Shown: in pieces, positions 7,645-61,194 of the stretch
Layout: each line of letters starts with the position of its first letter
Position numbering within the stretch: the stretch's first letter is position 1
NCBI GenBank assembly: GCA_964610315.1
Contig: CAZSVM010000014.1
Span: 5,106-69,105, forward strand
Source: an uncultured Actinomycetota bacterium
Lineage (GTDB): Bacteria > Actinomycetota > Humimicrobiia > Humimicrobiales > Humimicrobiaceae
DNA: 64,000 nucleotides
Direction: 5' to 3'
Translations under genes and position numbers: made by a program
The notes under the pieces: model-generated
What the model saw: the letters and a program-made list of their open reading frames with translations, nothing else
Database searches by the model: none
Told to the model about the DNA's origin: nothing

Positions 7645-7804
7645 CTTTTCTCACCTCCTAAAATGCCCGTACTATAATTTATCATAACTATATATTAATT
7701 ACAATTTAATCCCACCGCTGCTTCTAGTGCCCACAGGGTAAATAATCTTTAAAACTGCTAAAATCTTCCAACATGGACCCTTATTCAAATCAACTTAAAA
7801 TTCA

Positions 7805-39855: not shown

Positions 39856-41496
39856 ATGAAAAAAGCAGCCATTTATTGCCGTGTTTCAACAGCGCTCCAA
39901 GAACAAGAAAAAACAATTGATTCTCAGCTAGCAGAATTAAGAGAAACTTGTAAGGATTTACAGATTTTTAAAGAGTATATAGATAACGGATGGAGCGGAG
40001 AAACGCTTGATCGTCCGGCACTAGACCAGTTAAGAAACGATGCCAAAGAAGGTTTATTTGATGTCGTCTATATTCATTCGGTTGACAGATTGTCAAGAAA
40101 CCTTTATCAGCAAGGTATTTTGGTTGAAGAATTGAAGAAAAGAGGAGTGGAAATCCTTATTAGTGGCAAACCAATAGCAGATACTCCCGAGGGAAGATTC
40201 ATGTTCAATGTTCTCGGTGCTGCAGCAGAATTTGAAAAAGAAAAGATTCTGGAAAGGACAAAAAGGGGAAGGCTTTTTAAGGCTAAGCAGAAAGGGATTG
40301 TAGGTACACTGCCTCCATTCGGTTATAACTATATTAAGAAAGATGCATTAAGAGAAGGCTATTATAAAGTAAGTAAAAAAGAGGCAGAAATTGTAAGTCT
40401 AATATTTGATCTCTATATTGAACATTGTAGTTTAAAAAAAGTTATAAAAGAACTAGCTTTAATGAAAATCAGAACAAGAAAGAGAAGAGAGATTTGGGGA
40501 ACTAGTGTAGTAGCAAAAATTTTAAGAAGAGAAGACTACATAGGAATAGGTTATTATAGAAAAACTTATAGCGTTGAAATAAACAATGGAAAAAGATATA
40601 GAAAAGTAGTTAAAGAAGGACGAAGATTAAGAGACAGGAAAGAATGGATTCCTATCAAGTTTCCACCAATTATAGATCAAGAAAAGTTTAGATTTGTCCA
40701 GGAGATACTGTCAAAAAAATATAAGCCTTTTGGAAACAGCAAGCACTTTTATTTATTAAGTGGATTAGTAAAATGCGCTAATTGCAACTCACCTTTAGCA
40801 GGAGATACAACCATGGGCCATTCTTATTACAGATGTAATAACAGGCATAGAAATTTTCCTTTTCCTAGAGATTGTAACGCAAAAATGGTAAAGAAAGATA
40901 AATTAGAGAACGCAATTTGGAGCACATTTGTGAAAGCCATAAGCAATCCTCAGATAATTATTAGACATGTTTTGGATTCGTATTACAAAACAAATAAAAA
41001 TAGACCGGAATTAAGCAAAGAAAAAAAGATTCTATTAAGAAAAAAAGAAAATTTGGATGGAAAAACAGACAGACTGCTAGAAATTTATACTGATGGCATT
41101 ATTAGTAAGAAACAATTTTCTGAAAAAAGCATTAAATTTGAACAGATAAAGATAGAGATAGATAAAAGATTAAAAGAGATTGATGAACAATTAAATAAAT
41201 CCACCAGCAGACCACTAATCACCAAGGATATTAAATATTTTTGTAATTTAGCGAAGACAAGATTAAATACCCTTAAACTTAAAGAGAGACAAATATTCTT
41301 AAGGTATTTAATAAAAAAGATATTATTTGATTCAAATAAAAAATCTGCCAAAGTAATTGGGCAGATCCCCGTTGAGATTTCGGATATACAACAAATATTT
41401 CCTCCCTATAATGTTGGGACACTTTCCTTACTTTCTCAAAATTATGGAATGTGTCCCAGAAAATATATTAGATTTCAACTAGAGGTGACAGTTTAG
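39856..41496 (+). CDS. Large serine recombinase (resolvase catalytic domain + recombinase domain + zinc ribbon/coiled coil)
   Basis: AAIYCRVSTALQ (catalytic Ser), VDRLSRN, C-x2-C..C zinc ribbon (CANCNSPL..YYRCNN) and a Lys/Glu-rich coiled coil. Confidence 0.9.
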   Translation: MKKAAIYCRVSTALQEQEKTIDSQLAELRETCKDLQIFKEYIDNGWSGETLDRPALDQLRNDAKEGLFDVVYIHSVDRLSRNLYQQGILVEELKKRGVEILISGKPIADTPEGRFMFNVLGAAAEFEKEKILERTKRGRLFKAKQKGIVGTLPPFGYNYIKKDALREGYYKVSKKEAEIVSLIFDLYIEHCSLKKVIKELALMKIRTRKRREIWGTSVVAKILRREDYIGIGYYRKTYSVEINNGKRYRKVVKEGRRLRDRKEWIPIKFPPIIDQEKFRFVQEILSKKYKPFGNSKHFYLLSGLVKCANCNSPLAGDTTMGHSYYRCNNRHRNFPFPRDCNAKMVKKDKLENAIWSTFVKAISNPQIIIRHVLDSYYKTNKNRPELSKEKKILLRKKENLDGKTDRLLEIYTDGIISKKQFSEKSIKFEQIKIEIDKRLKEIDEQLNKSTSRPLITKDIKYFCNLAKTRLNTLKLKERQIFLRYLIKKILFDSNKKSAKVIGQIPVEISDIQQIFPPYNVGTLSLLSQNYGMCPRKYIRFQLEVTV

Positions 41497-45609: not shown

Positions 45610-48600
45610 CTAATAGAAATTTAACCCAATTGTATCTAGACCTTTAATCTTACTGTAACTGTTTTTAATTTTGTTTAGTTTATTATTGTCTACTCTGGCA
45701 TTATTAATAACAAGCAAAATCCCATAGTCAACACTAAACCCCTTCATATATCTCTGGAGACTTTTAAAAGATCCTTTGTTTTCCAAATTATTTCCTTTTA
45801 AATCTGGATGACTTGATAATTTTAGCTCAAGGAGTATCTGTCCAATAAATCCATAATTTATTAAAAAATCCACCCTTTTGCTATCTAACTTTTGTGGTTC
45901 TCTGTAGATCTGAAAATCGAGTCCTCGTTTGAGGAATTTATTCTCTAAAGCAAGTTGAATATTAGGTTGGATCTCAGGCTCCTTTTTATTTCTGATTATT
46001 TTGCTTCCCCCCTCGTTTTCAATCCAGTTCTTTAAGTCTTCATTTATGATTTTTTTAACATTATCAAACAGCTCTTCTGGAGTACCTATCGAAAGGTATT
46101 GTCTTGATTTTGTTTCATTGAAGGATTTTATGGCACTATTAATATTACTTGGTCTACCAATATAAACAAGATAAGAACGTTTCAGTTGTTTTAATTCTCC
46201 TTTAAACCAATTAGAATAATCTGAATGTATATTATTCTGTAAAAAATTTTCGAGTTGTTTAATCGCTTCATACGATCTTGTGTATTTTAAACCATCGAAG
46301 TATTTAAACACGATTCGCCATAAGTATTGAACGTAATTCCAATATCGTTCATTCTTATTTATCTTTTTAAAAGAAAAATCAATGAGATCAAGAAATTTCT
46401 TTATATAAGACATATCTTTTAGCTCCATCAATGAATTTGCAAATCTCTTCTCGTGTAATTCATTCTCTTGAGGACCAACTGAATGTACGCCTATTGGTTC
46501 TTCGAATTCAAAGATCCGTTTCTTTAATTGAGTAAATCGCCAGCTGATCGCTTTTTCATCTTTATAATTTTCAATCAACAGTTGATTTGCAGTTTCTGAA
46601 AGCTGGAAAGATTCATCTTTTCTTTTTTTATATTCTTTAAAAATTTTCTCTAATAATTTTTTATCAGGTTTTAACGATTCCATCAGTTTCAAACTTTCTA
46701 TTCGATTATAAACAGACAGTGTTTCCTCTTTTACAAATTCCTCAATAATACGAAGCGTTTCTTCCAGTTCGTATTCTTTAACGAATTCAATGAAACTTTC
46801 CGGTTGGAATAATCTTAGATCTGAATTGCTCTTGTATATAGCTAAGACATATTTTAATTCTTCCGTTTTTACATTTTTAATCAGTTTAAAAATGGCTTTA
46901 CGCTCTTCATAATATGCAAATGGAATAAAATTAATAATCTTTTGTCTATATTTTGAAATATCTATCTTTAATAAGGAGGCTAGCTTTATACAATCTGCAA
47001 AAATTGGATTCCAAGAATGCCAGGTAAAACTTGTATTATTACTATCTCTTCTGTTTATCTTGAATATTTTATATCCATCCTTGGGATCGAATTTCTCAAA
47101 AATTGATCTGGTCATTAAATTAATGATTCTCTTTCTCTCTATCTCTGTGATTTTTTTCTCAAGAATTTCTTTATTATCAATATAAAATCTAAATATACCT
47201 GGATCATATTTTCCTTTTCCGGGCTCCAGTCTTAATTGAAATTCCTTATAGACTGTTTCTTCTTTGGATTCGGATTGCTGTAATCTTTCTTTCCGAGCAA
47301 ATTTCTCAGATTCTTCATATTCTCTCCTTAAATACTTTCTCCCCTCTTCGTAAATTTCTTCTTTCAGTTTTCTATTAGAAAATTTAATTTGTTGAAGAGT
47401 CCATAAAGCTAATCTCTTACTTCTTTGGGTTTCTGATAATTCATTTATAAATCTCTCGACTTGATTCTTCTCAAGAACTGCCGCAAATACATTTTGGAAA
47501 CTAAAAATACTAGTTTTAAGCTCATCTGAACTCTTAATTCTTGAAATTAAGTTAAAAAGAAAGTTTGAGTCATACTCTTTAAGTAAAAGAGTCAACCTTT
47601 CGATGAAATTTGATCTCTCAACATAGTATGAATATTTTGATTCAAAAGCCTTTATTAGAATGTCAAAAGCAAGTTTGGCAATTTCTTCATCTAAAACAAC
47701 TTTGATATTCTGATTAATTTTTTCGTCTTTTTCTCTAAAAATGCTTTCCTTATCAAGAAAATGTTGAAGGAATAAGGTATCATTTTTTAAGGAATTTAAG
47801 AGCCTTTTTATTCCTTCTTTATTGTTAATTTCCCATATCCCATAGCGAGCTTCAAGGAAATCCCGTTTAGTACCCTCAACAAAATATTTTATCGATGGTT
47901 CACAGTTAGGATCTATTCTATAACAAAATCTCAAAAAAGCTCTTTGAACAAGTTCATCTTTATGTCTCCAAGTATTTTCTACTTTTTTAATCAATAGAGG
48001 GTCTTTAAACTCGCTCAGAGCATATAAGGAGAGTCTTTGGAGCACACCATTTTCATTTTCACTATTAGCAAACCTAATGAGTTTCTTTTTCCAATATTGT
48101 TGATCGTCTACAGCTAAGCTTTTGTTTTTTAGTAAGAAATGAACAATTAATGCCATATTTCCTTCTTTTACAAACAATCTCTGTCCATTTTCCCTGGTAT
48201 CAACCCATGACTTAAGAAAATCCGAAAGCGTATTATCATAAAAATAACTCAGTCCTTCTGCTATATCCCAATCTAGCCATAGTTCTTCTCTCACTTGATA
48301 GTGGGTTAGAATTTCTTTAAATATTGTTATTCTTGTTTCCTTATTTACTTTCTCATAATTTAATTTGAGTAATAGCTTGCTATATTCATCATCAATTACT
48401 AACTTAGTCTTTTTAAATCCAAAACGTAAAATTTTATCTAACAAATCTGGCTTTTGCTCTAATAAAAAGCTCAATGTGTTAAACCAACTCGGATGTATTT
48501 CTTGAAGTTCCTTATCTACCACAATATCATAGAGGGTTTTTTCTAATCTCCCCATGCGTAGAAGCTCTTTTGACGCTAAATATTCCTGAAACTCTGGATT

Positions 48601-49611
48601 TTCGAATGAAATAGTTTGAATATTGTCTTTGATAAGACTTTTATCATAAAAAGCTTCTATAGTCGTCTGGGCCAACAAACTCGGGATTAAATTTGACTTT
48701 GCATTATCGAAAAAAGTCATCAGTTCATCCTTGTCTATTTCGTTAGCCTGATAAATTTCCATTATAAGAGCTAATTTTTCTAAAACTCGTTTAATGATAT
48801 CTCGTTTTTGTCTATCTAAGACTCTGTCCTCTTTTTCTAATTTTTTGTAAATAAAATATTCAAACAACTCCCCTCTATTAATTTGAGAAATATCTGCAAC
48901 CGGATTGCTATGAATATACTCAATCAACAAAGATAAATAACGGGGAATTTGTATAATAAGCTGTCTATTTTGAAATCTAAGTTTCTTAAATATCAATTCT
49001 ATTTTTTCTTTTGGTATTTTACTCTTTTCTAAATACTCTTGTGTATCTTTAAGGGAAAAGGGGTATAGCATAACGATTTTAAATTTTTTTCCCTCAAATA
49101 CGGGAAATTTTTGATAATAGTTCAAACGGCAAGATAACAATAAAGAAATATTTTTATATTCATTTAAAAAATCTTTAATTTTTTCTATCGCCTCAGAAAA
49201 GATATCCTGACGAATTTCATCTAGTCCATCAAGACAAATTACAATACTATTTAAGTTTTTCAATTTAAACTTCTTTGTCCTGATAGCATCTGGTAAAGCC
49301 AATTGTCGGTTAATTATCTTTGGAATTGTATCACCACCGGCAAAACTCTTTAATTCAACAAAAATTGCTTCCTTTGAAGCTCGTAGTGTTATAAGTTTAA
49401 CAATTTCCCGCAAAAGATATGTTTTCCCGGACCCCGGTTCACCCACAACTAAAGACAAACGATGATCTAGTAAGCTTTTTAAATTTATTTTTTGAAATTC
49501 ATCTGGTAAAAGAGAAATTCTATATTCCTCTTTAAGTTTTTGAAAATCCTCTAGACCATCAAATATCCTAATATTTGGAGTAACAAAAATATCTTTTTTT
49601 AAATTAACCAT
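45610..49611 (-). CDS. NACHT/STAND NTPase with helical-repeat sensor region and C-terminal PD-(D/E)xK-like module
   Basis: Walker A VVGEPGSGKTYLL; Walker B IVICLDGLDEI; about 900 aa of helical repeats; C-terminal RVDFLINYGFIGQILLELK (D..ExK). Start set to ATG 49611 (MVNLKKD..) because 49612-49701 belongs to a leader shared with an unrelated gene. Confidence 0.8.
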   Translation of the reverse strand: MVNLKKDIFVTPNIRIFDGLEDFQKLKEEYRISLLPDEFQKINLKSLLDHRLSLVVGEPGSGKTYLLREIVKLITLRASKEAIFVELKSFAGGDTIPKIINRQLALPDAIRTKKFKLKNLNSIVICLDGLDEIRQDIFSEAIEKIKDFLNEYKNISLLLSCRLNYYQKFPVFEGKKFKIVMLYPFSLKDTQEYLEKSKIPKEKIELIFKKLRFQNRQLIIQIPRYLSLLIEYIHSNPVADISQINRGELFEYFIYKKLEKEDRVLDRQKRDIIKRVLEKLALIMEIYQANEIDKDELMTFFDNAKSNLIPSLLAQTTIEAFYDKSLIKDNIQTISFENPEFQEYLASKELLRMGRLEKTLYDIVVDKELQEIHPSWFNTLSFLLEQKPDLLDKILRFGFKKTKLVIDDEYSKLLLKLNYEKVNKETRITIFKEILTHYQVREELWLDWDIAEGLSYFYDNTLSDFLKSWVDTRENGQRLFVKEGNMALIVHFLLKNKSLAVDDQQYWKKKLIRFANSENENGVLQRLSLYALSEFKDPLLIKKVENTWRHKDELVQRAFLRFCYRIDPNCEPSIKYFVEGTKRDFLEARYGIWEINNKEGIKRLLNSLKNDTLFLQHFLDKESIFREKDEKINQNIKVVLDEEIAKLAFDILIKAFESKYSYYVERSNFIERLTLLLKEYDSNFLFNLISRIKSSDELKTSIFSFQNVFAAVLEKNQVERFINELSETQRSKRLALWTLQQIKFSNRKLKEEIYEEGRKYLRREYEESEKFARKERLQQSESKEETVYKEFQLRLEPGKGKYDPGIFRFYIDNKEILEKKITEIERKRIINLMTRSIFEKFDPKDGYKIFKINRRDSNNTSFTWHSWNPIFADCIKLASLLKIDISKYRQKIINFIPFAYYEERKAIFKLIKNVKTEELKYVLAIYKSNSDLRLFQPESFIEFVKEYELEETLRIIEEFVKEETLSVYNRIESLKLMESLKPDKKLLEKIFKEYKKRKDESFQLSETANQLLIENYKDEKAISWRFTQLKKRIFEFEEPIGVHSVGPQENELHEKRFANSLMELKDMSYIKKFLDLIDFSFKKINKNERYWNYVQYLWRIVFKYFDGLKYTRSYEAIKQLENFLQNNIHSDYSNWFKGELKQLKRSYLVYIGRPSNINSAIKSFNETKSRQYLSIGTPEELFDNVKKIINEDLKNWIENEGGSKIIRNKKEPEIQPNIQLALENKFLKRGLDFQIYREPQKLDSKRVDFLINYGFIGQILLELKLSSHPDLKGNNLENKGSFKSLQRYMKGFSVDYGILLVINNARVDNNKLNKIKNSYSKIKGLDTIGLNFY

Positions 49612-49790
49612 GTTTCCGTTTTCTTTTTTTATCGCTTGAATTCTCTTTAAAAAATTCTTTATTCTCCTTAACCAGAAAAACATAAAAGTAATCTTTTCCA
49701 TTTATCTTTTATAATCCTATTTAATTATAACAATAGATTAGGCAAATAAAAATCGCCCAGTGATGGGCCTTTTGTTTAGAAATACTCTAC
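49612..49790 (-). promoter_or_regulatory. Conserved promoter/leader module, copy A (upstream of the NACHT gene)
   Basis: About 180 nt aligns with 61195-61385. It includes the extended -10 TGTTATAAT (complement of 49724-32) and the GCCCA-gtga-TGGGC hairpin (49755-68). Confidence 0.55.
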
Positions 49791-50004: not shown

Positions 50005-51099
50005 ATGTCTAAAATCACCAATACAATTTGGGCAATAGAGCCTCATACTGAAGCAAAGCATGCTATTTTAAGAAAGTATCTAAACGCATGGTTGCCTATA
50101 ATCACTCGGTGGAATGGTCGTGTCCTTTATATTGATGGGTTTGCTGGTCCCGGAGAATATACTAATGGTGAAGATGGTTCTCCGATCATAGCTATAAAGT
50201 CAGTCTTGGAACACAGAGCGAATATTAAAGCAGAAATCATAATGCTATTTATTGAAGCGGATAAAAAAAGATGTGAATTTTTAAAAAATAAACTAGATAA
50301 TTATAAATTGCCTCTTAATATTAAAATAGAATGTATTTGTGCTAAATTTGAAGAAACTTTAAAAGAAATTTTAGATTATGTTGAAGATCAAAAAAAGAGG
50401 CTCGCTCCTGCTTTTGTCTTTATAGATCCTTTTGGCTTCACTGGGATACCCTTTTCAGTAATAAAAAAAATTATGGGAAATGAGAAATGCGAAGTTTTGA
50501 TTACATTTATGTATGAGGAAATCAATCGATTTATAACAGATAAAAGGCTTTGGGGAGGTCTTAATGAAACATTTGGAATAGATAAATGGCGAAAAGTAAT
50601 TTCTGAAAGTAATTCACAAAAGCGTGAAATATTACTACATAATATTTACAAAGAACAGCTAGAACAAGAAGCAAATATAAAATTTGTACACTCATTTAAA
50701 ATGACCAATAAAATCAATAAAACTGACTACTTTTTATTTTTTGGAACCAATAATATCGTTGGACTAAAGAAGATGAAAGGAGCTATGTGGAAAGTTGATG
50801 AAAGTGGGGCATTTCAATTTTCAGATGCAACCTATAACCCAGATCAGCCAATGTTATTTCAGATAGAACCCAATTATGATCAACTTAGGAAAATAATTCT
50901 AGAGAATTTCAAAAAGAAATCTGTTAGTGTAGAGGAACTTGAAAATTTTATAATCACACAAACGCCTTTTAGAGAGACTCATTATAAAAGACAAATCTTA
51001 GCACCAATGGAGAAAGTAAAGAAAATAAAGGTTAAATGTCTAAAACCCAAAAGGAGAAAAATGACTTATTCGAATGATTGTATGATAGAATTTCTTTAA
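50005..51099 (+). CDS. TcmP-like protein (three-Cys-motif partner protein family)
   Basis: EPHTEAKHAILRKYLNAWLPI.., DGFAGPGEY and FIDPFG motifs. Adjacent to a three-Cys rSAM-like gene. The assignment is from memory of the TIGRFAM family definition, not a search. Confidence 0.65.
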   Translation: MSKITNTIWAIEPHTEAKHAILRKYLNAWLPIITRWNGRVLYIDGFAGPGEYTNGEDGSPIIAIKSVLEHRANIKAEIIMLFIEADKKRCEFLKNKLDNYKLPLNIKIECICAKFEETLKEILDYVEDQKKRLAPAFVFIDPFGFTGIPFSVIKKIMGNEKCEVLITFMYEEINRFITDKRLWGGLNETFGIDKWRKVISESNSQKREILLHNIYKEQLEQEANIKFVHSFKMTNKINKTDYFLFFGTNNIVGLKKMKGAMWKVDESGAFQFSDATYNPDQPMLFQIEPNYDQLRKIILENFKKKSVSVEELENFIITQTPFRETHYKRQILAPMEKVKKIKVKCLKPKRRKMTYSNDCMIEFL

Positions 51100-51135
51100 T
51101 TTTATAATTTTTAAAATAACGATAGAATAAATATT

Positions 51136-51981
51136 ATGAAAAGTATAATACGAAAAACACTTCTATATAAAAGTAGGGTAGAATATGCTGATTATTGTAT
51201 TAATCACGTTGAAGGATGCGCTCATGGTTGCAGGTTTCCTTGCTATGCAATGATGATGAAAAAAAGATGTGGAATTATAAAAAACTATAAAGAGTGGATA
51301 GAACCTAAAATCGTAGCTAATGCCCTGGAGTTATTAAATAAGGAACTTCCTAAATATAAACACAAGATAAATTTTGTTCATTTATGTTTTTCTACTGACC
51401 CTTTTATGTACAAGTATCCAGAAGTGGTAGATTTGACTTTAAAAATAATTGAGAGATTAAATAAAGACAATATTCGTTGCGTTGTTTTAACTAAAGGAAT
51501 CTATCCTAAGGTTCTATCTGACACTAAAAGATATGGCATAAATAATGAATATGGCATTACTCTCATTTCTTTAAGTAATAGTTTTAAGGAAAGATTTGAA
51601 CCATATTCGGCTCCATATAAAAAAAGAATTGAATCCCTAAAATATTTACAAAAGAGGGGCTTAAAAACTTGGGTTAGTATGGAACCATATCCCACACCAA
51701 ATCTAATAAAACAAGATTTAATAAGTGTTTTAAAATCAATCTCTTTTGTGGATAAAATTATATTTGGAAAAATAAATTATAATACCAATTCAAATCAATT
51801 TGAAAAAAATAACAACTCATTTTATAGAAAATGTTCTGATATTGTAATAGACTTTTGCGAGAAAAACAAAATCGAATACCATATAAAACACGGGACACAG
51901 AAAAAAAATAATAAAAAAACAGAAAAGATCTTTAAAAAAGGAGAGATAATAGAGATTGAAACCTTGCCTTTACCTATCTAG
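51136..51981 (+). CDS. Three-Cys-motif radical-SAM-like protein (SplB/COG1533-like fold)
   Basis: INHVEGCAHGCRFPCYAMM: C-x3-C-x3-C instead of C-x3-C-x2-C. TIM-barrel-like remainder. Confidence 0.65.
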   Translation: MKSIIRKTLLYKSRVEYADYCINHVEGCAHGCRFPCYAMMMKKRCGIIKNYKEWIEPKIVANALELLNKELPKYKHKINFVHLCFSTDPFMYKYPEVVDLTLKIIERLNKDNIRCVVLTKGIYPKVLSDTKRYGINNEYGITLISLSNSFKERFEPYSAPYKKRIESLKYLQKRGLKTWVSMEPYPTPNLIKQDLISVLKSISFVDKIIFGKINYNTNSNQFEKNNNSFYRKCSDIVIDFCEKNKIEYHIKHGTQKKNNKKTEKIFKKGEIIEIETLPLPI

Positions 51982-52014
51982 AGTTTAATATATAATAAGT
52001 TTAAAATAAAAACA

Positions 52015-52034
52015 GCCCAGAAATGGGCTTTTTT
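52015..52034 (+). terminator. Intrinsic terminator with GNRA loop
   Basis: GCCCA-gaaa-TGGGC-tttttt, 34 nt after the rSAM stop. Confidence 0.75.
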
Positions 52035-52087
52035 GATTAAATTTTCCTTAGCTTCAGGTTAAATTTCGATGTAATACAAAATTAATC

Positions 52088-52519
52088 TTATTTATCATTA
52101 TGTTTATATTTTATCTTGACCTTATATTTAAAAAAATTAATACAACTTCCATACCTTCTTCTTCCTTTAGGAGACCCTTCATAACCCTTACAGGACTCGC
52201 TTCCCTCTTTTTCTGTTTCTTTGTTTCTAACCATTCCACGCAATACCCCGCCTATAGAAAACCCACCACCATAACACAATGGATTACTACAATCTATATA
52301 TTCGCCAGGTGGATTTTTTATTGAATAATAATGTGAATTCTCATTACTAAAAACAGAACCAAGGTGACCAGTTTCTTTACATTCAATTTCTAAATCGACA
52401 ATTTCTGGGAATGCTTCCTTAAATGGAACTTTTCTGCTAAATAAAAATTCCGATTCCCGGAAAATATCAGATGCTTTTTTATGATCTCTCATACTTATTT
52501 GAATATTAATATTTATCAA
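52088..52519 (-). CDS. Hypothetical Cys/Gly-containing protein (143 aa)
   Basis: ORF with a 16-nt gap to the upstream wHTH gene. No motif recognised. Confidence 0.4.
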   Translation of the reverse strand: MININIQISMRDHKKASDIFRESEFLFSRKVPFKEAFPEIVDLEIECKETGHLGSVFSNENSHYYSIKNPPGEYIDCSNPLCYGGGFSIGGVLRGMVRNKETEKEGSESCKGYEGSPKGRRRYGSCINFFKYKVKIKYKHNDK

Positions 52520-52535
52520 TTAATTCTTTGAGTCC

Positions 52536-52859
52536 TTATTCGTTCTGACCTATCTCTTGTAGGGCCTTCTGGACTCCTTCAGGGTCAAGCACTTTATAAT
52601 AAGCTCTTCTTCCACCGCGACTTCGATCTTTTACTTGTAAAATCCCGTAACTTACAAGTACACGTAAATTGGGGAACCATTGAATCCCTCTTTTTTTGGC
52701 TGTCTCTAATACCCAAGCCCCGGCGAAATCGCCATTGGTTCGCTTCTCCTCTTCGAGACATGCTTCCACAATTGGAAGCCAATTGGTGCGTTCCCGTGCG
52801 AGTCTTTTCACTGCATAATAACCCGAAGAGGGTTTATTATTTTTCTTTATTTCGGTCAT
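52536..52859 (-). CDS. Small winged-helix protein (107 aa)
   Basis: ..LRVLVSYGILQVKDRSRGGRRAYYKVLDPEG.. has a wHTH wing pattern. Confidence 0.45.
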   Translation of the reverse strand: MTEIKKNNKPSSGYYAVKRLARERTNWLPIVEACLEEEKRTNGDFAGAWVLETAKKRGIQWFPNLRVLVSYGILQVKDRSRGGRRAYYKVLDPEGVQKALQEIGQNE

Positions 52860-52901
52860 GTAATCGCATCATAAAGCACCAAAATGATACTTGTCAAGTA
52901 T

Positions 52902-53001
52902 TTCAAAGTCATGGAATATGTCCCAGAAAATATGTTAGGTTTCAGTTGGAAGTGACGGTTTAGTAAAAAAATCCCCCTATAAAGGGGATTTCCGGTTTAG
53001 C
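52902..53001 (+). repeat. Array repeat R4
   Basis: ttcaaagtcatggaatatgtcccagaaaatatgttaggtttcagttggaagtgacggtttag + a7-ATCCCC-ctataaa-GGGGAT-ttccggtttagc. Confidence 0.85.
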
Positions 53002-53103
53002 TACATGTGTGTAGTGAATAGAGTTCGAATCTAGTCCGGGTAATTCATATGATTTTTATTTACTTTGTTAAGATAAAATATCTTGCATTAAGTTGGTGGA
53101 AAA

Positions 53104-53610
53104 TCACTTATCAACCCCATAATCTGCCTCTCCTTCCTCGATCCCTCTCCGTGCCTTTGAATATGCCCATTTTGGGATCTGTGGTGATTTCAGATTAAGC
53201 CCATCTTTCTCTTGATTTAAAATTTTTAGCTGCTGCACAATATCATTATCGTCAGTTATTGTATCAATATCAATCTCACAGAAAATTCGAGATTTATTTC
53301 TTAAACTATTGTACTTATTTCCCGATTTGTGATGTAACATCGCTTTTTCATTTGGATTCAAAAAAGTTGATACAGCTGTAAGCGAGGTTACTATAATAGC
53401 TAAAATACCAGCAAGAATGTTATGATTGTCGAAATGTGAAAGAGCAGAAGCACCAGAAATAGCAGCTAGAATTGCTGTAGGGATACCTATCCATAGACGA
53501 AGATTTGTCCAAAATTGTGCAGTATAAAAATGGCCCTTTGCAGAGTAAAGACAATCTTCTTCTATGCGTCTAGCTTCCCTTATAATTTTTACCCTGGTTT
53601 CTTTTCCCAT
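53104..53610 (-). CDS. SLATT-domain two-TM effector
   Basis: CLYSAKGHFYTAQFWTNLRLWIGIPTAILAAISGASAL plus a second TM LAGILAIIVTSLTAVSTFLNP. Start set to MGKETRV (53610), 4 nt after the upstream stop. Confidence 0.7.
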   Translation of the reverse strand: MGKETRVKIIREARRIEEDCLYSAKGHFYTAQFWTNLRLWIGIPTAILAAISGASALSHFDNHNILAGILAIIVTSLTAVSTFLNPNEKAMLHHKSGNKYNSLRNKSRIFCEIDIDTITDDNDIVQQLKILNQEKDGLNLKSPQIPKWAYSKARRGIEEGEADYGVDK

Positions 53611-53614
53611 AAAC

Positions 53615-54481
53615 TTAACTTCCATAAGCCGGAAATTTTTCACCAAAAATTTGTCGCCATATTGCGATAGCTCTCTCGTGTTCGCTTCTCCCATTATGTG
53701 TAAGGTACCAGGCATCTCGAGCCTTATCTCTGGCAGTTTTTAGTCTTTCCAGAGCTAATATTCTATTTCCTGCATTAAGGTACTTATCTACGTAGCCAAG
53801 TTCGTACCATAGAGATGAAGATACTAATTTAACTGCTTCATCAAAGTACTTAAACACATTCCACGGATAATCTGCTAATTTGCTATTAAATATTTTAAGC
53901 GCCATTACCTCTATATGGAAAGACTGAAGAAAATTGCTATGTTGATGATTCCACCATTTTATCATCTTAATAATACGTTTGAAAGCATCCCCACATTCTT
54001 TATTTCTCTGACTTAATAAGTCTGAGTGTTTTCTAGGTCTTGATGGTAACCAACTTTCCGTATTCATATCGGGAACATTATAATAATCTACTGATCCATT
54101 GTCATTAACAATTCTCGAAACAGGTACAATATCAACATTAGGCCACGTATTGTAATAAAGTGTAACTGCTTGTCCATTTCTTCTAACATTAGTTTTGTAT
54201 TCAGCTAAGCAATCTCTTACTACTTGCAGAACTTGTGACGGTTTCTTCCCTTTTATGTGTTTGCCATAATGAAACACAACAATGATATCTAAATCAGCGT
54301 ATTCTTTTAGAGCCGTAAAACGTGGAATTGAGCCAGAAGGGAAAGCATCAATTATCTCAAACTCATCCTCTAAAAGCGAAACAAGGTGATCTTTACGCTT
54401 ACTAGCAGTTTCTCTATAATCTCCAGAAAGCTCAATGTTTTCCCTAAATTTATCAAAAGAAACGTGTACAGTGTAAGGCAT
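53615..54481 (-). CDS. SMODS/CD-NTase-like nucleotidyltransferase
   Basis: Pol-beta NTase signature FPSGSIPRFTALKEYADLDIIVVF (GS..DxD), a third acidic residue in NVDIVPV, and a helical C-domain. Confidence 0.7.
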   Translation of the reverse strand: MPYTVHVSFDKFRENIELSGDYRETASKRKDHLVSLLEDEFEIIDAFPSGSIPRFTALKEYADLDIIVVFHYGKHIKGKKPSQVLQVVRDCLAEYKTNVRRNGQAVTLYYNTWPNVDIVPVSRIVNDNGSVDYYNVPDMNTESWLPSRPRKHSDLLSQRNKECGDAFKRIIKMIKWWNHQHSNFLQSFHIEVMALKIFNSKLADYPWNVFKYFDEAVKLVSSSLWYELGYVDKYLNAGNRILALERLKTARDKARDAWYLTHNGRSEHERAIAIWRQIFGEKFPAYGS

Positions 54482-54593
54482 GCTATCAGATTAACTGGAT
54501 CCCTTGTTCCAGTCAATCAATTTTTTTTGTTTATTCTTATTAAAAACATCTCCCCAAATGTAGTATATCTGGGTATAAACTAATCAACTATAA

Positions 54594-56360
54594 CTAGGAT
54601 CTGAAAATATTTATTGTATCCTCTTTACTATACGGCGTTCCAAATTTTATGTGATATTTGATATTGTTTCTCTCACAAAACTCCATTACCTTCTTTGCCA
54701 TTCTCCTATAAAAATCTTCACTGTTCTCCCACCCTGGAGGACAATTGTTACCATAATAAGTCAGCCTTCGATAATTTAACTTACCAAAAATAATTTTCTT
54801 AACAAACTTAATTTTTTCTAAAACTTTCTCAATATTTTCTGCATTCGGGTCATATTCTGGTATAGGATAAGGCTCCATGCTTATCCAAGTTTTTAAACCA
54901 GCTTTGGCGAGCCTCTTGAGAGATTCTATCCTTTTCTTGTAAGGTGCTGAGAATGGTTCAAATTTTTGTTTAAATTTATCATCTAAAGATACAAGCGTAA
55001 TTCCATATTCATTATTTTGTAAAAATCTTTTTCTATTTAAGATTTCTTCAGGGTAAAAACCTTTTGTTAAGGTTGTTACTCTTATTTCTTCTTTATTCAG
55101 TGTCTCAATAATCTTAAGGGTTAGCTCTTTTATTTCAGGAATCAAATCTCCTTCCTCAAAATCATACATAAAAGGATCTGACATAAAACAAAGGTGAACA
55201 AAATCTATCTCGTTTTTGTATTTAGGTATCTCTGTTTCTAAAAGTTGTAAAGCATTTCTTGCAACCCTAGGTCTTCTCCAGTCAGAATAGTTTTTAACCC
55301 ATCCAAATTTCTGAGCCATTCTAAATGCGTAGCAAGGGAAATTACAACCGTGCATGCACCCTATGATGTGGTTTATTGTCCAATCGCCGTACTCTACTTT
55401 GGTTTTATAGAGAAGTGATTTTCTATAAATTCTCTTAATCTTAGATGGAATAAATAAAATATTTTGTAAATAAAACTCTCTACCAAACAAGGTGGGACCT
55501 AGAGTATTTTCTTTCTCCTCAGCGTAAATACCTTTTACTATCTTATCTGTAAATGTCTCATTTTTTGAGGCAAATAAAAGATAGTAAATGATATCTCTCC
55601 TAGCTGGATACTGCATATCAAAACCTGCTACATTATATCCGTTTTTGACAAATAAAGTTTTTATATAATCACTAAGTAAACCTAAATCTTTTTTTGTTTT
55701 ATAATCTACATCTTTACCTAGAAATTCTTCTAAGGTACTGACTGTTTTTATCTCTTTCGGTATTGAAGACTCTTTTACTGCTATTCCCCGTGTTCTAGTT
55801 TCACCTTCCTTACTGTAATTAAAAAAAATGTCAATGGGATTATTCAGGTTTAGATAGCTTTTAATGGTTTTTTTATGAATATTAATACCCCAAGGATCAA
55901 TACAAAGAAATATTGGGTGTTTTGGAGTATTTTGTATCTCTTTGAGTATTCCTGGACTTACTTTATTACAATCCTCATTTAAAAATTTAACTTTAACAAT
56001 ATCCTCTATTTCAGGATGATTTTTTATAAGCTGAGAAGCTTCCTTCTCTAACTCAATTTTGTATTTTTTGGCAATCTCAATAAAAAATAATTTAATTTTA
56101 ACATTATTTTTCTTTAATTTTCCTTCTTGTTTTATAATCTCCTCAAGAAAAATAAGAGGCGAACCACTGACTTTTTTCTTTTCATCTTTGTACCATCCTC
56201 TACCAGCGAATAAATCTAAGACGTACCATTCTTTACTAACCCACTTTTGTTGATTAGGCCCATTCCATATAGTAAGCCATATATCAAAAATCTTCCGAAG
56301 CATTCGAAGCTTGGTTCTAGTATGCGGTCTTTTTACAATATCCCATGCATCTTTAATCAT
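54594..56360 (-). CDS. Fusion protein: TcmP-like N-half + three-Cys radical-SAM-like C-half
   Basis: The N-half carries HTRTKLRMLRKIFDIWLTI, LFAGRGWY and CIDPWG. The C-half carries INHIIGCMHGCNFPCYAF and NNEYGITLVSL..FEPFSAPYKKRIESLKRLAKAGLKTWISMEPYP, closely matching ORFs 50005-51099 and 51136-51981. Confidence 0.75.
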   Translation of the reverse strand: MIKDAWDIVKRPHTRTKLRMLRKIFDIWLTIWNGPNQQKWVSKEWYVLDLFAGRGWYKDEKKKVSGSPLIFLEEIIKQEGKLKKNNVKIKLFFIEIAKKYKIELEKEASQLIKNHPEIEDIVKVKFLNEDCNKVSPGILKEIQNTPKHPIFLCIDPWGINIHKKTIKSYLNLNNPIDIFFNYSKEGETRTRGIAVKESSIPKEIKTVSTLEEFLGKDVDYKTKKDLGLLSDYIKTLFVKNGYNVAGFDMQYPARRDIIYYLLFASKNETFTDKIVKGIYAEEKENTLGPTLFGREFYLQNILFIPSKIKRIYRKSLLYKTKVEYGDWTINHIIGCMHGCNFPCYAFRMAQKFGWVKNYSDWRRPRVARNALQLLETEIPKYKNEIDFVHLCFMSDPFMYDFEEGDLIPEIKELTLKIIETLNKEEIRVTTLTKGFYPEEILNRKRFLQNNEYGITLVSLDDKFKQKFEPFSAPYKKRIESLKRLAKAGLKTWISMEPYPIPEYDPNAENIEKVLEKIKFVKKIIFGKLNYRRLTYYGNNCPPGWENSEDFYRRMAKKVMEFCERNNIKYHIKFGTPYSKEDTINIFRS

Positions 56361-56547: not shown

Positions 56548-56649
56548 TTCAAACTCATGGAATGTGTCCCAGAAAATATATTAGATTTCAATTGGAAGTT
56601 ACGGTGTAGCAAAAAAATCCCCCCATAAAGGGGATTTCTGGTTTGGCTC
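56548..56649 (+). repeat. Array repeat R5
   Basis: ttcaaactcatggaatgtgtcccagaaaatatattagatttcaattggaagttacggtgtag + a7-ATCCCC-ccataaa-GGGGAT-ttctggtttggc. Confidence 0.85.
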
Positions 56650-56654
56650 AGAAT

Positions 56655-57203
56655 TTAATATTCGATCTGTAATTTCTCAATTTTATTTTTGTAGGTTATG
56701 TATTTATGTGAAAATCCTTTTTTACTAATTCTGAACTTCATCTTCCTTGCAAAATCCGGGAATCTTCTAATGCCACCTAACAAATCAAAGTAGGTTAAAA
56801 AATAAGCCAGAGCAGCTTCACAATCATATGTATTTAAACTGGTTGCTAATATAATTACTCCTGGTGACTTAGATAAGGGAAATTTTCTGTCGTTCCAGAA
56901 GTCATTGTCGTTGGTCAAGATTAAGTAATTCTTTCTTGAACAATAATCATAGATATCAGAATCTTCACGAGACGAATATTTAATTTCTTCAAAGGCTTTA
57001 AACTTAGGGAAATCAATTAACTCATTTTTCAACATCTGTGATAGATTCCTATCTAAAAAAATTCCAACCTTGCGTTTTGGAGGATTCCATGCAATCCAAT
57101 TTTTTTTAAACCATTTATCAAACCCTGGATCTTCTTTTCTGAGAGAATTTAAATATTCATTAAACTTCATTACTTCACTTAATATTAGGTAATCACCACT
57201 CAC
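56655..57203 (-). CDS. PIN-like (DUF5615/Mut7-C-type) domain protein
   Basis: IFLDRNLSQML..DSDIYDYCSRKNYLILTNDNDFWN..SPGVIILA follows the DUF5615 pattern. GTG start; an alternative ATG lies at 57170. Confidence 0.45.
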   Translation of the reverse strand: MSGDYLILSEVMKFNEYLNSLRKEDPGFDKWFKKNWIAWNPPKRKVGIFLDRNLSQMLKNELIDFPKFKAFEEIKYSSREDSDIYDYCSRKNYLILTNDNDFWNDRKFPLSKSPGVIILATSLNTYDCEAALAYFLTYFDLLGGIRRFPDFARKMKFRISKKGFSHKYITYKNKIEKLQIEY

Positions 57204-57318: not shown

Positions 57319-57357
57319 AAATTTTATTGCTCCTTAGAAAATCTAAATTTCGTGATT

Positions 57358-58113: not shown

Positions 58114-61100
58114 CTAAATTAATTCCTTCTCAATTTTAGGATATATTTTATCTATTTCTCTTTGTAAATAAATGGTCCAATTTAAAACAGTGGTAACTTT
58201 TAGAAAATGATTGACTTCATCATTAGATAAAACCATATTAGTTCTATCTTTTAACCATTTATCTAAGACTTGATAGCCGCCTATATAATAATTCCAAACA
58301 TCGGGCGCTACTGTACCAAAATACTGCCTCTCATTGATATAAATCCGTCCTGCATTTTCCCTATATCCTCGTTGTCTAACTCTATTATCGCCAACAACTG
58401 GATATGTCACCCTAGTATCTTCTAATTTGTCTGATTTTAATAAATGGAGGTTTACTAATTCACTGCCTAACCCCGCTATTTTGTTGAAAAGATTAATATT
58501 CTTAATAAATGGTACTCTTGGAAAATCAATCTTTAAAAATTCATCATATTTTTCGCGATAAATATTAGAGTACAAAATTGCATAAATATAATTAAAAATT
58601 TTCCATGGATCAATCGTTTCAATAAAACCTCCTTTTATCTTTTTCCAAAACTCTGGAGAAAAATTTTCTTGTTGAATATTGCTTTTACCAAACAAATTAT
58701 TTTCATTATCCAAATAAAGAAAGAGTGGGAAAATATATGCACTTTCTTTTGTTTGTAATGATAATAAGCAAATATCCGACGCGAACTGGGAAATAAAGCT
58801 GTGTTTAAATGAAAATGTTGAGAGCTGTTTAGTTGTAATAAGTGCTAAGTTATCTTCGCTTAATTTCCAGATATTTTCGTTACGTGATCTTTCTATTAAG
58901 CTTTTATCATAATAAATCCAACGTACATCAAACGGTCTATAATAGTATTTTTTAAATAATTCATCTTTAATTTCATTTCTTTTAAATTTTTCTCGAGCTT
59001 CGCGCATTTTCCAAGTACTAGTATCTTTTAAATTATAAGTTGATGTTAGTGTTTGATCATCTAGATTATCATCGCTGAACATCATTAATTTTCTTTTTAA
59101 TCCTTCTTTTGAATAATCTAAAATAAAATTATCTCTGTGGGTTTTTACTCCGCTTGAAAACTCTTTAAAAATATCTTTGAAAGAAATAAATTTATCATAT
59201 ACTTTTTCACCTTTTGTATCTTTCAGAATAAAGAAATAATTTGGTTCTCTTAATTTCAACTTCTCCCACTTTGTATTTTGAATATTATGTTCCTCGAGAA
59301 ATTTATACTTTTCGTCTCTTAAGCCGTAAAGATCAGCATATCTTATTACTTGTTGTTTTTTCTCTCCTGTTTTTACTAACAAAATAATTCCCACGCCCTG
59401 CTGAATATCAAAAACGTTTTCATCTTTTCCTCCCGTTGGCGTCTTTTCTTTTCTTTTGTAGTTTCCGTGTAGATTTAAAATATAGATTTCATCAAAGTCT
59501 TTAGTCAATTTTTGACGCATATCTCTATGGATTAAACCATCAAGATAAGAATTATTTGTAATCATTCCCACGATCCCCTGGCCGGTTTGTTTTATTTTCC
59601 AATGGGCAAAGGCAATAAATTTAATATAGTCATCAGAAAGAGGTTGAATATTTCTTTCTTCTTTTCTAACTTTTTCTTTATAGCTTTCATAGAGGTCATT
59701 AAAATCTGATCCTTCTTTTATAATATTCGAAGAACTAACAGAGTACGGCGGATTTCCCATAACTACTAAAATCGGCACATCTTTTTTAACCTTCATTGCT
59801 TTTCGTGCTTCTTCAGAAAGGCTAGCAACATATGGTAGTGTTGCCTGCTCTATATCTGATAAATCAAGCGTATTAGTTAGATAAAGGGGAAACCTATCAC
59901 TGTTCTCTAAGTCATAACCCAAATCCTCTAAAAGTAAGGAAACTTTAAGATGACCAATGATATAGGGAGCCATTAGAAGTTCAAAGGCATAATAATCCTT
60001 AAGAACGTGATTTTTGACAACTTGAAGCCAAGAGCCAGCATTAGGACTTCTATCTATTTCCTCTTTAGCAATCAAAATGGACTTTGCCGGGAAAGTTAGA
60101 GTGCCGGAAGCAGGATCTAAAATGATCACATTTTTATCAGCAAAGCCAGCCTTTCTGCCGAATTTTTCTTTAAGTAAAATATTGACTGAACGAGTAATAT
60201 AAGAAACAACAGGCAAGGGAGTATAAAAAATACCCCTATGTTTTTTCTCTTTGGGGTTATATTCCTTCAAAAAGGTTTCATAAAAATGAATCAAAGGATC
60301 ATCTCCACCTGTCCTTTTATGTAACTCCTCTTTGATTTTCTCGATGTCAGCGTAAGCTAAAATTGTTGCAATATCGTCAACAGCCCAACTAATTGATTCA
60401 GGTAAATTGGAGCCAGAAATTAAAGAGAAGGTATCCTTTAAAATCTGGATGTTCTTAGGAATATATTTCTGGGCTAAAAAACGATCAAATCCTTTTTCTT
60501 TATGGCGAAGTCTCGCCATAAATAATCCATAGGTAATTGTTTGAGCATAAATGTCAGCAAAATCTTTTTTGGTCAAGTCTGTAATTAAGTACTTTTTAAA
60601 TGCTTTATATATTCTGTCTATCTCAGTTTCAACATTATTATTTAATTCTCCGACAATACATGCAGGTATTAATTTCGCTCTAGAAGCAAGCTCAATAGCT
60701 AAAGTCTTAGCACTTTTCCTTTCAGGGATATTAAAATTTAAAAACACCTCTATTAAATTGAGAAAATCTCTTTCGTTTTTTAAAGGCGGTAATTGATTCG
60801 CTTTAAGAAAATTTAACTCTCCAACACTTATTCTGGTCTTAAGAATCCATTTTTTCTCACTTTTCCTCCAAAGCCAAAAGTCAAAATAATTAGTTAGAAT
60901 AAAATTATCGAAATCCTTTTTATATCTCTCAATCTGAAGAGTATGTTCAAAAAGCCCTAAATCTTTCCCAATGTCTTTTGCCTCTATATAACCAACTAAC
61001 TCTTTACTTCTTCGAATGGTAAAATCAGGCACTCCAGCCTCTATACGTTTTGGCTGAATGGTAATATTAGTAGTAATTCCTTTTGATCTAGAAAATTCTT

Positions 61101-61194
61101 CAATAAGATTTTTAAGATCAGGATAAAAACTGGGCTCGGTAGTATCGCCAGTTTTAAAAGTTTTTAATATATTTTTAAAATACTTATTGAGCAT
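58114..61194 (-). CDS. Single-chain Type IIG/IIL (MmeI-like) restriction endonuclease / N6-adenine DNA methyltransferase
   Basis: N-terminal PD..ExK (VPDFTIRRSKELVGYIEAKD). Gamma-class MTase motifs GIFYTP, ILDPASGTLTF and MGNPPYS. The C-terminal ..IGGYQVLDKWLKDR.. resembles Type ISP/YeeA specificity domains. Confidence 0.8.
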   Translation of the reverse strand: MLNKYFKNILKTFKTGDTTEPSFYPDLKNLIEEFSRSKGITTNITIQPKRIEAGVPDFTIRRSKELVGYIEAKDIGKDLGLFEHTLQIERYKKDFDNFILTNYFDFWLWRKSEKKWILKTRISVGELNFLKANQLPPLKNERDFLNLIEVFLNFNIPERKSAKTLAIELASRAKLIPACIVGELNNNVETEIDRIYKAFKKYLITDLTKKDFADIYAQTITYGLFMARLRHKEKGFDRFLAQKYIPKNIQILKDTFSLISGSNLPESISWAVDDIATILAYADIEKIKEELHKRTGGDDPLIHFYETFLKEYNPKEKKHRGIFYTPLPVVSYITRSVNILLKEKFGRKAGFADKNVIILDPASGTLTFPAKSILIAKEEIDRSPNAGSWLQVVKNHVLKDYYAFELLMAPYIIGHLKVSLLLEDLGYDLENSDRFPLYLTNTLDLSDIEQATLPYVASLSEEARKAMKVKKDVPILVVMGNPPYSVSSSNIIKEGSDFNDLYESYKEKVRKEERNIQPLSDDYIKFIAFAHWKIKQTGQGIVGMITNNSYLDGLIHRDMRQKLTKDFDEIYILNLHGNYKRKEKTPTGGKDENVFDIQQGVGIILLVKTGEKKQQVIRYADLYGLRDEKYKFLEEHNIQNTKWEKLKLREPNYFFILKDTKGEKVYDKFISFKDIFKEFSSGVKTHRDNFILDYSKEGLKRKLMMFSDDNLDDQTLTSTYNLKDTSTWKMREAREKFKRNEIKDELFKKYYYRPFDVRWIYYDKSLIERSRNENIWKLSEDNLALITTKQLSTFSFKHSFISQFASDICLLSLQTKESAYIFPLFLYLDNENNLFGKSNIQQENFSPEFWKKIKGGFIETIDPWKIFNYIYAILYSNIYREKYDEFLKIDFPRVPFIKNINLFNKIAGLGSELVNLHLLKSDKLEDTRVTYPVVGDNRVRQRGYRENAGRIYINERQYFGTVAPDVWNYYIGGYQVLDKWLKDRTNMVLSNDEVNHFLKVTTVLNWTIYLQREIDKIYPKIEKELI

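Follow-up and report, generated by a model that had tools for sequence, protein, structure and literature searches.

A TcmP and radical-SAM module, split and fused, in a bacterial defence island: a variant of candidate system PDC-M30 with operon-level links to N6-adenine restriction-modification genes

TcmP (three-Cys-motif partner, TIGR04474) is a protein family that we take to be defined by adjacency to a three-Cys-motif protein of the DUF5131/PF07505 family. PADLOC-DB holds two candidate defence systems built on it, PDC-M30, in which A is a TcmP with a winged helix-turn-helix (wHTH) and B is a DUF5131 protein, and PDC-M41, in which A is a short TcmP and B is again DUF5131. Candidates of this series were predicted from their embedding in operons of restriction-modification (RM), BREX or DISARM systems, and the embedded cassettes were regarded as candidate systems in their own right, with many homologues that are not embedded (Payne et al., bioRxiv 10.1101/2024.01.29.577857). 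Here we analyse a 64,000-nucleotide stretch of an uncultured Actinomycetota bacterium of the Humimicrobiaceae (GenBank assembly GCA_964610315.1, contig CAZSVM010000014.1), which we call the window. A first-pass annotation had noticed in it a TcmP-like protein and a partner resembling a radical S-adenosylmethionine (SAM) enzyme (rSAM), present twice, once as two genes and once as a single fused gene, and had proposed an uncharacterised anti-phage system. Our results showed that the module is a variant of the listed candidate PDC-M30, with a swapped partner subfamily and a fused form, and not a categorically new system; its strongest contextual signal, absent from that annotation, is operon-level linkage to N6-adenine RM systems in other genomes. 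The proposal of an anti-phage system thus stood as to the defence context and not as to its novelty, PDC-M30 and PDC-M41 being already listed, and a function is attributed to the module through guilt by association only. The genes and motifs in question are located in the window as follows.

50005..51099, + strand: A1, the TcmP of the split version, 364 aa
51136..51981, + strand: B1, the radical-SAM partner of the split version, 281 aa, starting 36 bp 3' of A1
54594..56360, - strand: the TcmP-radical-SAM fusion, 588 aa, with a TcmP half at residues ~1-290, without a wHTH, and a radical-SAM half at residues ~305-588
51217..51243, + strand: codons of the B1 Cys triad, Cys28-x3-Cys32-x3-Cys36 (GCAHGCRFPCYA)
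55332..55358, - strand: codons of the fusion Cys triad, Cys335-x3-Cys339-x3-Cys343 (GCMHGCNFPCYA)

The coordinates, strands and lengths first reported for the three open reading frames (ORFs) match the translated ORFs, and every peptide string cited at that time was found in their translations. BLASTP bore out the view that the fusion is made of paralogues of both split proteins: residues 9-144 of A1 align with residues 6-158 of the fusion at 27% identity (E=5e-9; the alignment spans 158 aa), and residues 1-254 of B1 align with residues 308-575 at 55% identity over 268 aa (E=2e-103). The two cassettes had been described as adjacent, which is not the case; they are convergent and 2.6 kb apart, with the SMODS and SLATT genes of a cyclic-oligonucleotide-based anti-phage signalling system (CBASS) and two small ORFs between them. 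The closest relatives elsewhere reach 89% identity for A1 and, in one case, 83% for the fusion. A local duplication or fusion inside the window was rejected, as each copy has far closer relatives elsewhere than in the window. Because these homologues (89%, 83%) are closer than the two copies are to each other (27%, 55%), the island holds two old, separately acquired subfamilies, and sequence comparison indicates that the window copies represent two separate, widespread subfamilies of the same module, not a local split and fused pair. We have high confidence in the claims made here about what these proteins are.

As first annotated, the N-terminal proteins are TcmPs: both A1 (232.2 bits) and the N-half of the fusion (109.1 bits) exceed the curated TIGR04474 cut-off of 53. 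A1 is laid out as a class-I SAM-methyltransferase fold (~residues 10-265) followed by a C-terminal winged helix, PF22560 (GMT-wHTH), at residues 275-343 (E=1.5e-7). Among split TcmPs the wHTH is recognised by PF22560 in A1 and as a weak, sub-threshold match in the L045 type; it is absent from the fusions, which carry the radical-SAM domain where the split TcmPs carry the wHTH. Sequence searches of the PDB with A1, B1 and a 30-sequence TcmP profile gave no meaningful match, so the structural claims rest on AlphaFold models (A1, AF2, pLDDT 81; fusion, AF2, pLDDT 85.9 and pTM 0.73) compared by Foldseek. Against the PDB, the A1 model returned 75 matches at E<=1e-3, and all 50 of the 50 listed are SAM methyltransferases or close relatives; the best TM-score was to RlmJ (6qe5; TMt 0.52, rmsd 5.1), and the model of the fusion N-half matched RlmJ and its DUF519 relatives at E ~1e-5.

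We aligned 30 TcmP sequences from four divergent subfamilies (A1 type, Collinsella type, L045 type and fused type). D44, G50, D141 and P142 are invariant; F46, A47, G48, E84 and G144 are nearly so (>=90%), and G58-S-P60 is invariant or nearly invariant. These residues, which outline motif I (D44-x-F-A-G-x-G50), motif II (E84, which follows strand 2) and a motif IV-like D141-P-x-G144, coincide with the SAM-binding positions of class-I methyltransferases. K18, R175 and Y242 are invariant as well. The class I methyltransferase-like fold that had been guessed from short motifs is thus backed by model matches to SAM methyltransferases in the PDB and by conservation of motifs I, II and IV. The models lead us to regard TcmP as a predicted class-I SAM-binding protein of the methyltransferase fold, with RlmJ as its closest solved relative. 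RlmJ and the DUF519 proteins (23S rRNA m6A2030 methyltransferase; 4blu, 6qe5, 2oo3) give the best TcmP match by TM-score (TMt 0.40-0.52) and share with it the class-I fold, the glycine-rich SAM loop, the acidic residue after strand 2 and a D-P-containing motif IV. They differ in that sequence identity is 9-13% and a sequence search with A1 or the TcmP profile does not find them, and TcmP has D-P-x-G instead of a DPPY-type motif, a long N-terminal helix with an invariant Lys, and either a wHTH or a fused radical-SAM domain.

The partner matches Radical_SAM (PF04055) with 47.2 bits in B1 and 41.5 bits in the fusion, both above the gathering score of 29.5, and, together with Foldseek matches to radical-SAM enzymes, this bears out its first identification as a radical-SAM protein. 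By contrast, the scores against DUF5131 (PF07505) are 23.5 bits (B1) and 20.9 bits (fusion), below the threshold of 28.9 (E=4e-5). In the window the partner is adjacent or fused to a TcmP that passes the curated cut-off, but it belongs to another subfamily than the DUF5131 proteins of the family definition, with a score below their threshold and a CX3CX3C instead of a CX6CX2C triad; it is a DUF5131 homologue at the superfamily level, nearer to PA0069/Rv2578c/COG1533-like enzymes. NCBIfam gave weak B1 matches to PA0069, Rv2578c and rSAM_mob_pairB, all far below their cut-offs (36-42 bits against 360-430 for the PA0069 and Rv2578c equivalog models), and the equivalog models of spore photoproduct lyase (SPL) were not matched by the radical-SAM proteins of the window. 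The model of the fusion C-half had SPL (4fhc) as its best Foldseek match (E=8e-8, TMt 0.54-0.57), followed by the radical-SAM enzymes SuiB, MqnE, SkfB, NifB and HydE. DUF5131, SPL and MJ0683-like proteins are grouped in Megacluster-5 of RadicalSAM.org (PMC9477430). From its sequence, we assign the partner as a probable true radical-SAM enzyme of the SPL/DUF5131/PA0069 clade. The B1-type family is of moderate size: clustered at 50% identity, it numbers 130 representatives at E<=1e-30, a figure that rises to 728 when matches down to E<=1e-10 are counted.

The Cys triad had been described as carrying one residue more than the canonical motif, and this is what we found. The pattern GC[AS]HGCx[FY]PCYA (CX3CX3C) is present in 56 of 56 fusions, in which G334, C335, H337, G338, C339, P342, C343 and Y344 are invariant, and in 81 of the 149 listed family representatives that were checked. 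The canonical CX3CX2C itself is absent from the window proteins, which have CX3CX3C at the homologous position, and 23 further clear relatives have GCxHGCxYCYA (CX3CX2C) at that same position. Since these 23 relatives keep the canonical spacing in the same place, the odd spacing is best explained as one proline inserted in a genuine cluster motif. The DUF5131 partners of more distant TcmPs have CX6CX2C, as in GCTKVSPGCKNCYAE. Together with the non-canonical spacing of the window proteins, the CX6CX2C of these relatives could suggest that the three cysteines bind zinc in a structural role and that the protein has no radical-SAM activity. We give this explanation almost no credence, given that relatives from the same family search keep CX3CX2C at the same position, that the Pfam Radical_SAM model aligns from its first position, where the triad lies, and that the fold matches SPL and other radical-SAM enzymes. 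The CX3CX3C cysteines are expected to bind a 4Fe-4S cluster, which would split SAM and so generate a 5'-deoxyadenosyl radical.

SPL, the best structural match of the radical-SAM half and a member of the same megacluster, is separated from it by 14% sequence identity, by another Cys spacing, and by the methyltransferase-fold partner and the RM and defence context of the window module, which contrast with sporulation and UV repair. The only characterised member of the SPL clade acts on flipped DNA nucleotides. Because SPL acts on a flipped-out DNA lesion, we propose DNA as the substrate. Another substrate is conceivable: in a viperin-like chemistry the target of the radical-SAM enzyme would be a free nucleotide, which TcmP would help to bind, and the product would be a chain terminator or a signal. 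Nucleotide-acting radical-SAM defences do exist (viperins, Ophion), and one relative with the canonical motif, P0249, weakly matches the PADLOC model pVip (E=2e-4). B1 itself has no pVip match, however, the best fold match is the DNA-acting SPL and not viperin or MoaA, and the wHTH of TcmP and the RM linkage point to DNA, so that we consider this chemistry very unlikely.

Two observations concern the domain in other architectures. The 1002-aa protein P0243 has a B1-type radical-SAM domain at residues 746-998, and the 509-aa protein P0276 has an N-terminal B1-type domain followed by a sigma-70 region-4 HTH.

The first-pass annotation had read the fusion as Rosetta-stone evidence that the two proteins act together. 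The fusion turned out to be a conserved family, with more than 120 full-length fused homologues of 56-83% identity to that of the window, and the split genes are always adjacent. Fusions occur in metagenome-assembled genomes (MAGs) and genomes of Pirellulales, Stahlbacteria, Gammaproteobacteria, Smithella, Bacteroidetes, Ignavibacteria, Patescibacteria, Nanoarchaeota and Caldimicrobium thiodismutans, and one locus (L024) has a split form of the fused type. For A1-like TcmPs of >=57% identity, a B1-type enzyme is the next gene in every case in which the downstream flank is on the contig. Below ~55% identity to A1 the partner is mostly DUF5131, in variable orientation, and a third set of TcmPs adjoins two SPL-like radical-SAM proteins that match TIGR04070 at ~1e-21 to 1e-22. 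Because it occurs with these three kinds of partner (B1 type, DUF5131 and SPL-like pairs), TcmP appears to be a general partner of SPL-clade radical-SAM enzymes. TcmP and the radical-SAM enzyme are an obligate two-part enzyme, and the distribution of the module is patchy and cross-phylum, reaching Nanoarchaeota and Patescibacteria. A conserved small third gene downstream of the module was considered and rejected; short ORFs are common there and are unrelated between lineages.

Other arrangements were seen around this family. In the IMG/VR contigs L060, L061 and L064 (TcmP ~39% identical to A1) and in L158 there are two convergent CX3CX2C neighbours, of ~321 and ~355-370 aa; the L060 pair beside TcmP weakly matches a spore-photoproduct-lyase model (~1e-21 to 1e-22) and has no PADLOC model. 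The gene order at positions 297-7748 of L027 is Eco57I-type methylase, Piwi-domain protein (short pAgo-like), SIR2-domain protein and B1-type radical-SAM protein (334 aa); beside the last of these we found no recognisable TcmP.

Compared with the PADLOC candidates, the window module shares the two-gene logic of a TcmP and an SPL-clade radical-SAM protein, and suspicion of it likewise comes from embedding in RM-type operons. A1 matches M30A (PDLC04567) with E=8.3e-72 over residues 1-362, and the N-half of the fusion also matches M30A. The difference lies in the B component, which in PDC-M30 and PDC-M41 is DUF5131 (CX6CX2C): true DUF5131 partners match at ~1e-105 to 1e-113 (~1e-105 to 1e-109 for M30B), while B1 matches no PADLOC model at E<=0.01, its relatives match the PADLOC DUF5131 models at best weakly (E=6e-5 or weaker) and the C-half of the fusion matches M41B only at 1e-5. 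The fused architecture lacks a PADLOC model. Because B1-type partners have no model, PADLOC, by its system definitions as we understand them, would presumably call neither window copy; and since current PADLOC models miss these variants, defence-system censuses undercount the TcmP-radical-SAM family.

The loci examined came from GTDB genomes, metagenomes, IMG/VR and exact-protein look-ups. A three-gene operon of a PLD-SNF2 helicase, an Eco57I-type N6 methylase and, in last position, the fusion was found in Caldimicrobium (L001), in a Bdellovibrio MAG (L005) and in L013 and L016, with overlapping or near-abutting junctions (-29 to +4 bp); in L012 and L015 a methylase fragment followed by the fusion stands at the contig start. 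The closest fused homologue (83%) begins 7 bp after an MmeI/Eco57I-type methylase gene; genes for a relaxase and a TraG-like protein are present on the same contig (conjugative element). Type III operons contain both versions, the fused form as Mod-fusion-Res (L007, L019) or Res-fusion-Mod (L008) and the split pair as Mod-Res-TcmP-rSAM (L045, L048). In Type I operons, the split pair is found in Collinsella as HsdM-HsdS-x-HsdR-TcmP-rSAM, and in L056/58/59 an A1-type pair (73% identity to A1) comes directly after HsdM-HsdS, with no HsdR. Lastly, in L095 an A1-type pair follows an Eco57I-type methylase and a T5orf172/ResIII helicase.

To quantify the association, we compared 48 dereplicated loci by BLAST with a panel of RM proteins that was kept conservative on purpose. 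Of the 205 ORFs at positions 1-3 from the module, 25 matched the panel, against 8 of the 234 ORFs further out (positions >=4; odds ratio 3.9, p=8e-4). A same-strand RM gene lies within three ORFs of the module in at least 14 of 38 informative non-redundant loci, and in 11 loci an RM gene is immediately upstream, with gaps of -29 to +32 bp. This linkage independently reproduces the basis of the PADLOC prediction, which our results broaden in three ways: Type III and Eco57I-type systems are now included, as are a different radical-SAM partner and the fused form.

The module also occurs in viruses and near other defence genes. Stand-alone copies lie in defence-like or prophage-like regions (L053, L055), and others are on IMG/VR contigs. 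In the temperate Gordonia phage ThankyouJordi, 4 bp separate the immunity repressor gene from the start of gp42, a TcmP homologue that is annotated as a 'methyltransferase'; a DUF5131 gene adjoins gp42 in convergent orientation, and an integrase gene is nearby. The slot after the repressor is where actinobacteriophages keep defence genes that are expressed from the prophage. In Sinorhizobium meliloti a TcmP gene adjoins the gene of the Hna defence helicase (PMC12445080). Taken over these loci, the module is horizontally mobile: it is found in defence islands and in the lysogeny region of a temperate phage, and very often it lies within an N6-adenine RM operon or closes one at its 3' end.

These contexts bear on the possibility that the module has a housekeeping role in RNA modification or DNA repair and is present in the island by coincidence. 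Its folds do match RlmJ, which modifies rRNA, and SPL, which repairs UV lesions, and some loci are among housekeeping genes. Such a role seems highly improbable in view of the patchy cross-phylum distribution (including Nanoarchaeota and Patescibacteria), the two divergent copies in one low-GC island with a recombinase, the occurrence in phages and conjugative elements, the significant RM adjacency, and the scores for the SPL, PA0069 and Rv2578c equivalogs, which are far below cut-offs. By analogy with these neighbourhoods, we consider an anti-phage role for the module rather probable.

As the best explanation of the evidence as a whole, though one we put forward tentatively, the module would be self-contained, DNA-directed, SAM-dependent and restriction-like. 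TcmP would dock on DNA, in the split form through its own wHTH; the fused form, without a wHTH, probably relies on the co-translated RM methylase or specificity subunit. The observed contexts suggest that DNA targeting comes from either source, because fusions, which have no wHTH, are often coupled to an RM methylase and wHTH-bearing pairs are often alone (a pattern seen by eye). The methyltransferase-like pocket of TcmP would then receive a flipped-out nucleotide and present it, much as RlmJ and SPL present their substrates, and the radical-SAM half would abstract a hydrogen from this nucleotide. In a minimal RM-like logic, TcmP might mark or read self DNA, and the radical-SAM half would damage unmarked (foreign) DNA by a replication-blocking lesion or a break; in the fusion both activities would be united in a single polypeptide, as they are in Type IIG enzymes. 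This logic would account for the intact methyltransferase motifs and the viability of stand-alone pairs, for the Type IIG-style fusion and the HsdM-HsdS-TcmP-rSAM loci without HsdR, and for the location in the lysogeny module of a phage. For this specific RM-like radical mechanism we would claim less, and regard it as possible and on balance doubtful.

The intact SAM-binding motifs of TcmP and the abutting or overlapping of the module with RM methylase genes, which suggests translational coupling, could also be explained by a writer of DNA hypermodification, in which both SAM-binding parts install a new carbon-linked base mark. The 5'-deoxyadenosyl radical would activate either the base or a second SAM held by TcmP, comparable to the chemistry of Elp3, the class C radical-SAM methylases and RlmN/Cfr, and the new mark would come on top of the m6A set by the neighbouring RM system, or it would shield the DNA of a mobile element from restriction. 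Elp3 joins a radical-SAM domain to a GNAT (acetyl-CoA) transferase domain and acts on U34 of tRNA. Its likeness to the fusion, a radical-SAM domain joined to a second cofactor transferase fold, makes a two-cofactor attack on one nucleotide plausible by analogy, although the partner fold, domain order, substrate and biology differ and homology is limited to the radical-SAM core. The presence of the module on a conjugative element near a relaxase, in phages and on IMG/VR contigs agrees with a writer, and a modification-only enzyme would be harmless when alone. Nevertheless, RM operons already encode their own methylase, the stand-alone pairs come without a dedicated reader or nuclease, the Gordonia phage gene is on the same strand directly after the immunity repressor and so is probably expressed in lysogeny and not part of lytic DNA metabolism, and HsdM-HsdS-TcmP-rSAM without HsdR looks more like the replacement of a restriction subunit. 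We therefore rate a writer as unlikely, if well worth keeping in mind.

The Type I and Type III operons, in which the module may even lie between mod and res, recall the textbook precedent of PrrC, a gene embedded in Type I systems. Like PrrC, the module is an addition to hsd or mod/res operons, either inside them or at their end, and it could be a guard or back-up effector, silent until a phage disables restriction through an anti-restriction protein or SAM depletion and then damaging nucleic acid to abort the infection. Phage SAM lyases destroy SAM, and both halves of the module are predicted to bind it. PrrC is nevertheless an unrelated anticodon nuclease that depends on its RM host, whereas the TcmP module is often alone; many copies, the two of the window among them, do not share an operon with any RM gene, and the RM partners that do occur are of three unrelated types, which is hard to square with specific protein-protein guarding. 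A guard role is, in our judgement, quite unlikely.

Several results weigh against the restriction-like reading that we favour. More than half of the informative loci have no RM neighbour, and in L003, L014, L024 and L054 the module sits among housekeeping genes. Both copies of the window lie outside RM operons and are apparently separate transcription units. Embedding, where it is seen, can reflect a safe harbour instead of functional coupling. The third residue of the motif-IV-like D-P-x-G is variable (F, W, Y or T), unlike the DPPY of amino-methyltransferases, and because the TcmP profile finds no PDB structure by sequence, the link between TcmP and RlmJ is at the fold level only (TM 0.4-0.5). 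Methyl transfer by TcmP, DNA as the substrate as opposed to RNA or a nucleotide, and damage as opposed to a mark are all things that we infer, and the computed evidence does not separate damage from marking. In the literature we found no functional paper on TcmP or DUF5131 and no experimental test of M30 or M41.

In its most general form, radical-SAM chemistry on a nucleotide flipped by a methyltransferase-fold partner would serve as 'restriction' or as a carbon-linked base mark with no hydrolytic nuclease, and could plug into Type I, III or IIG specificity subunits and even stand in for HsdR, a generalisation that we think rather improbable as it is now worded. If radical chemistry on DNA does take place, it would be new enzymology in prokaryotic immunity: to our knowledge, the radical-SAM defences so far described (viperins, Ophion, HXS) act on nucleotides or peptides, not DNA. 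It would also provide the first function for the large orphan radical-SAM branch DUF5131/PA0069/Rv2578c in Megacluster-5. Ready-made constructs for testing exist in the natural fusion, in the split pair and in the variants that are coupled to Type I, III and IIG systems.

Turning to the window itself, the module lies within a low-GC stretch of ~36-61 kb (GC 0.29-0.33, against 0.35-0.41 in the flanks). The defence-island neighbourhood that had been described was recovered with Pfam and PADLOC, which found the NACHT protein, the CBASS pair, a Type ISP-like methylase and also a Panacea-domain antitoxin. The main neighbours and the predicted hairpins are the following.

39856..41496, + strand: large serine recombinase with Resolvase, Recombinase and Zn_ribbon_recom matches, close to the left end of the low-GC island
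45610..49701, - strand: NACHT/STAND ATPase, 1363 aa, divergent from A1
53104..54481, - strand: CBASS pair, between the two TcmP cassettes
53104-53715, - strand: SLATT 2TM effector of the CBASS pair (PADLOC Effector 2TM E=6e-65; Pfam SLATT_4)
53615-54481, - strand: SMODS cyclase of the CBASS pair (PADLOC Cyclase E=2e-101; Pfam SMODS)
58114..61194, - strand: Type ISP-like N6-adenine methylase/specificity protein, 1026 aa (Type_ISP_C E=8e-81; N6_Mtase and Eco57I matches)
52014..52029: bidirectional terminator-like hairpin closing the A1-B1 operon
54553..54573, - strand: weak terminator-like hairpin just 3' of the fusion stop codon
56619..56634, - strand: strong terminator-like hairpin 3' of the DUF5615 gene, upstream of the fusion

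A low-GC block that holds all the defence genes, with a recombinase at its edge, suggests an integrated mobile island. The hairpin at 56619..56634 implies that the fusion has its own promoter, the gap upstream of its start being 294 bp, and with hairpins after B1 and around the fusion both versions look like self-contained transcription units. The nearest RM gene is that of the Type ISP-like methylase, two genes upstream of the fusion and on the same strand. We considered whether the window holds a disrupted methylase-fusion operon and rejected it, as this methylase shares only core motifs (E=1e-4) with the methylase of the closest fused homologue. Between the Type ISP-like methylase and the fusion (56655-58023, - strand) are genes for a DUF5615 (PIN-like) protein and for a 221-aa protein that has no Pfam or PADLOC match.

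Other features of the island were recorded in passing. Directly downstream of the CBASS pair, at 52088-52859 (- strand), are two small ORFs of 107 aa and 143 aa, the latter Cys-rich, neither with a Pfam or PADLOC match; the arrangement of a CBASS pair and two small ORFs recurs on the independent contigs L166 and L167. A DUF2188 gene is located at 44973-45218 (+ strand), and in L053 a DUF2188 gene (7417-7659) lies two genes upstream of the A1-type pair, beside LexA-like S24 peptidase genes. Finally, an adenosine deaminase gene at 62650-63744 (PF00962 E=7e-66) abuts the gene of a 337-aa predicted membrane protein with no Pfam match (61635-62648), both on the - strand; this pair, at the island's right edge, may constitute a two-gene unit.

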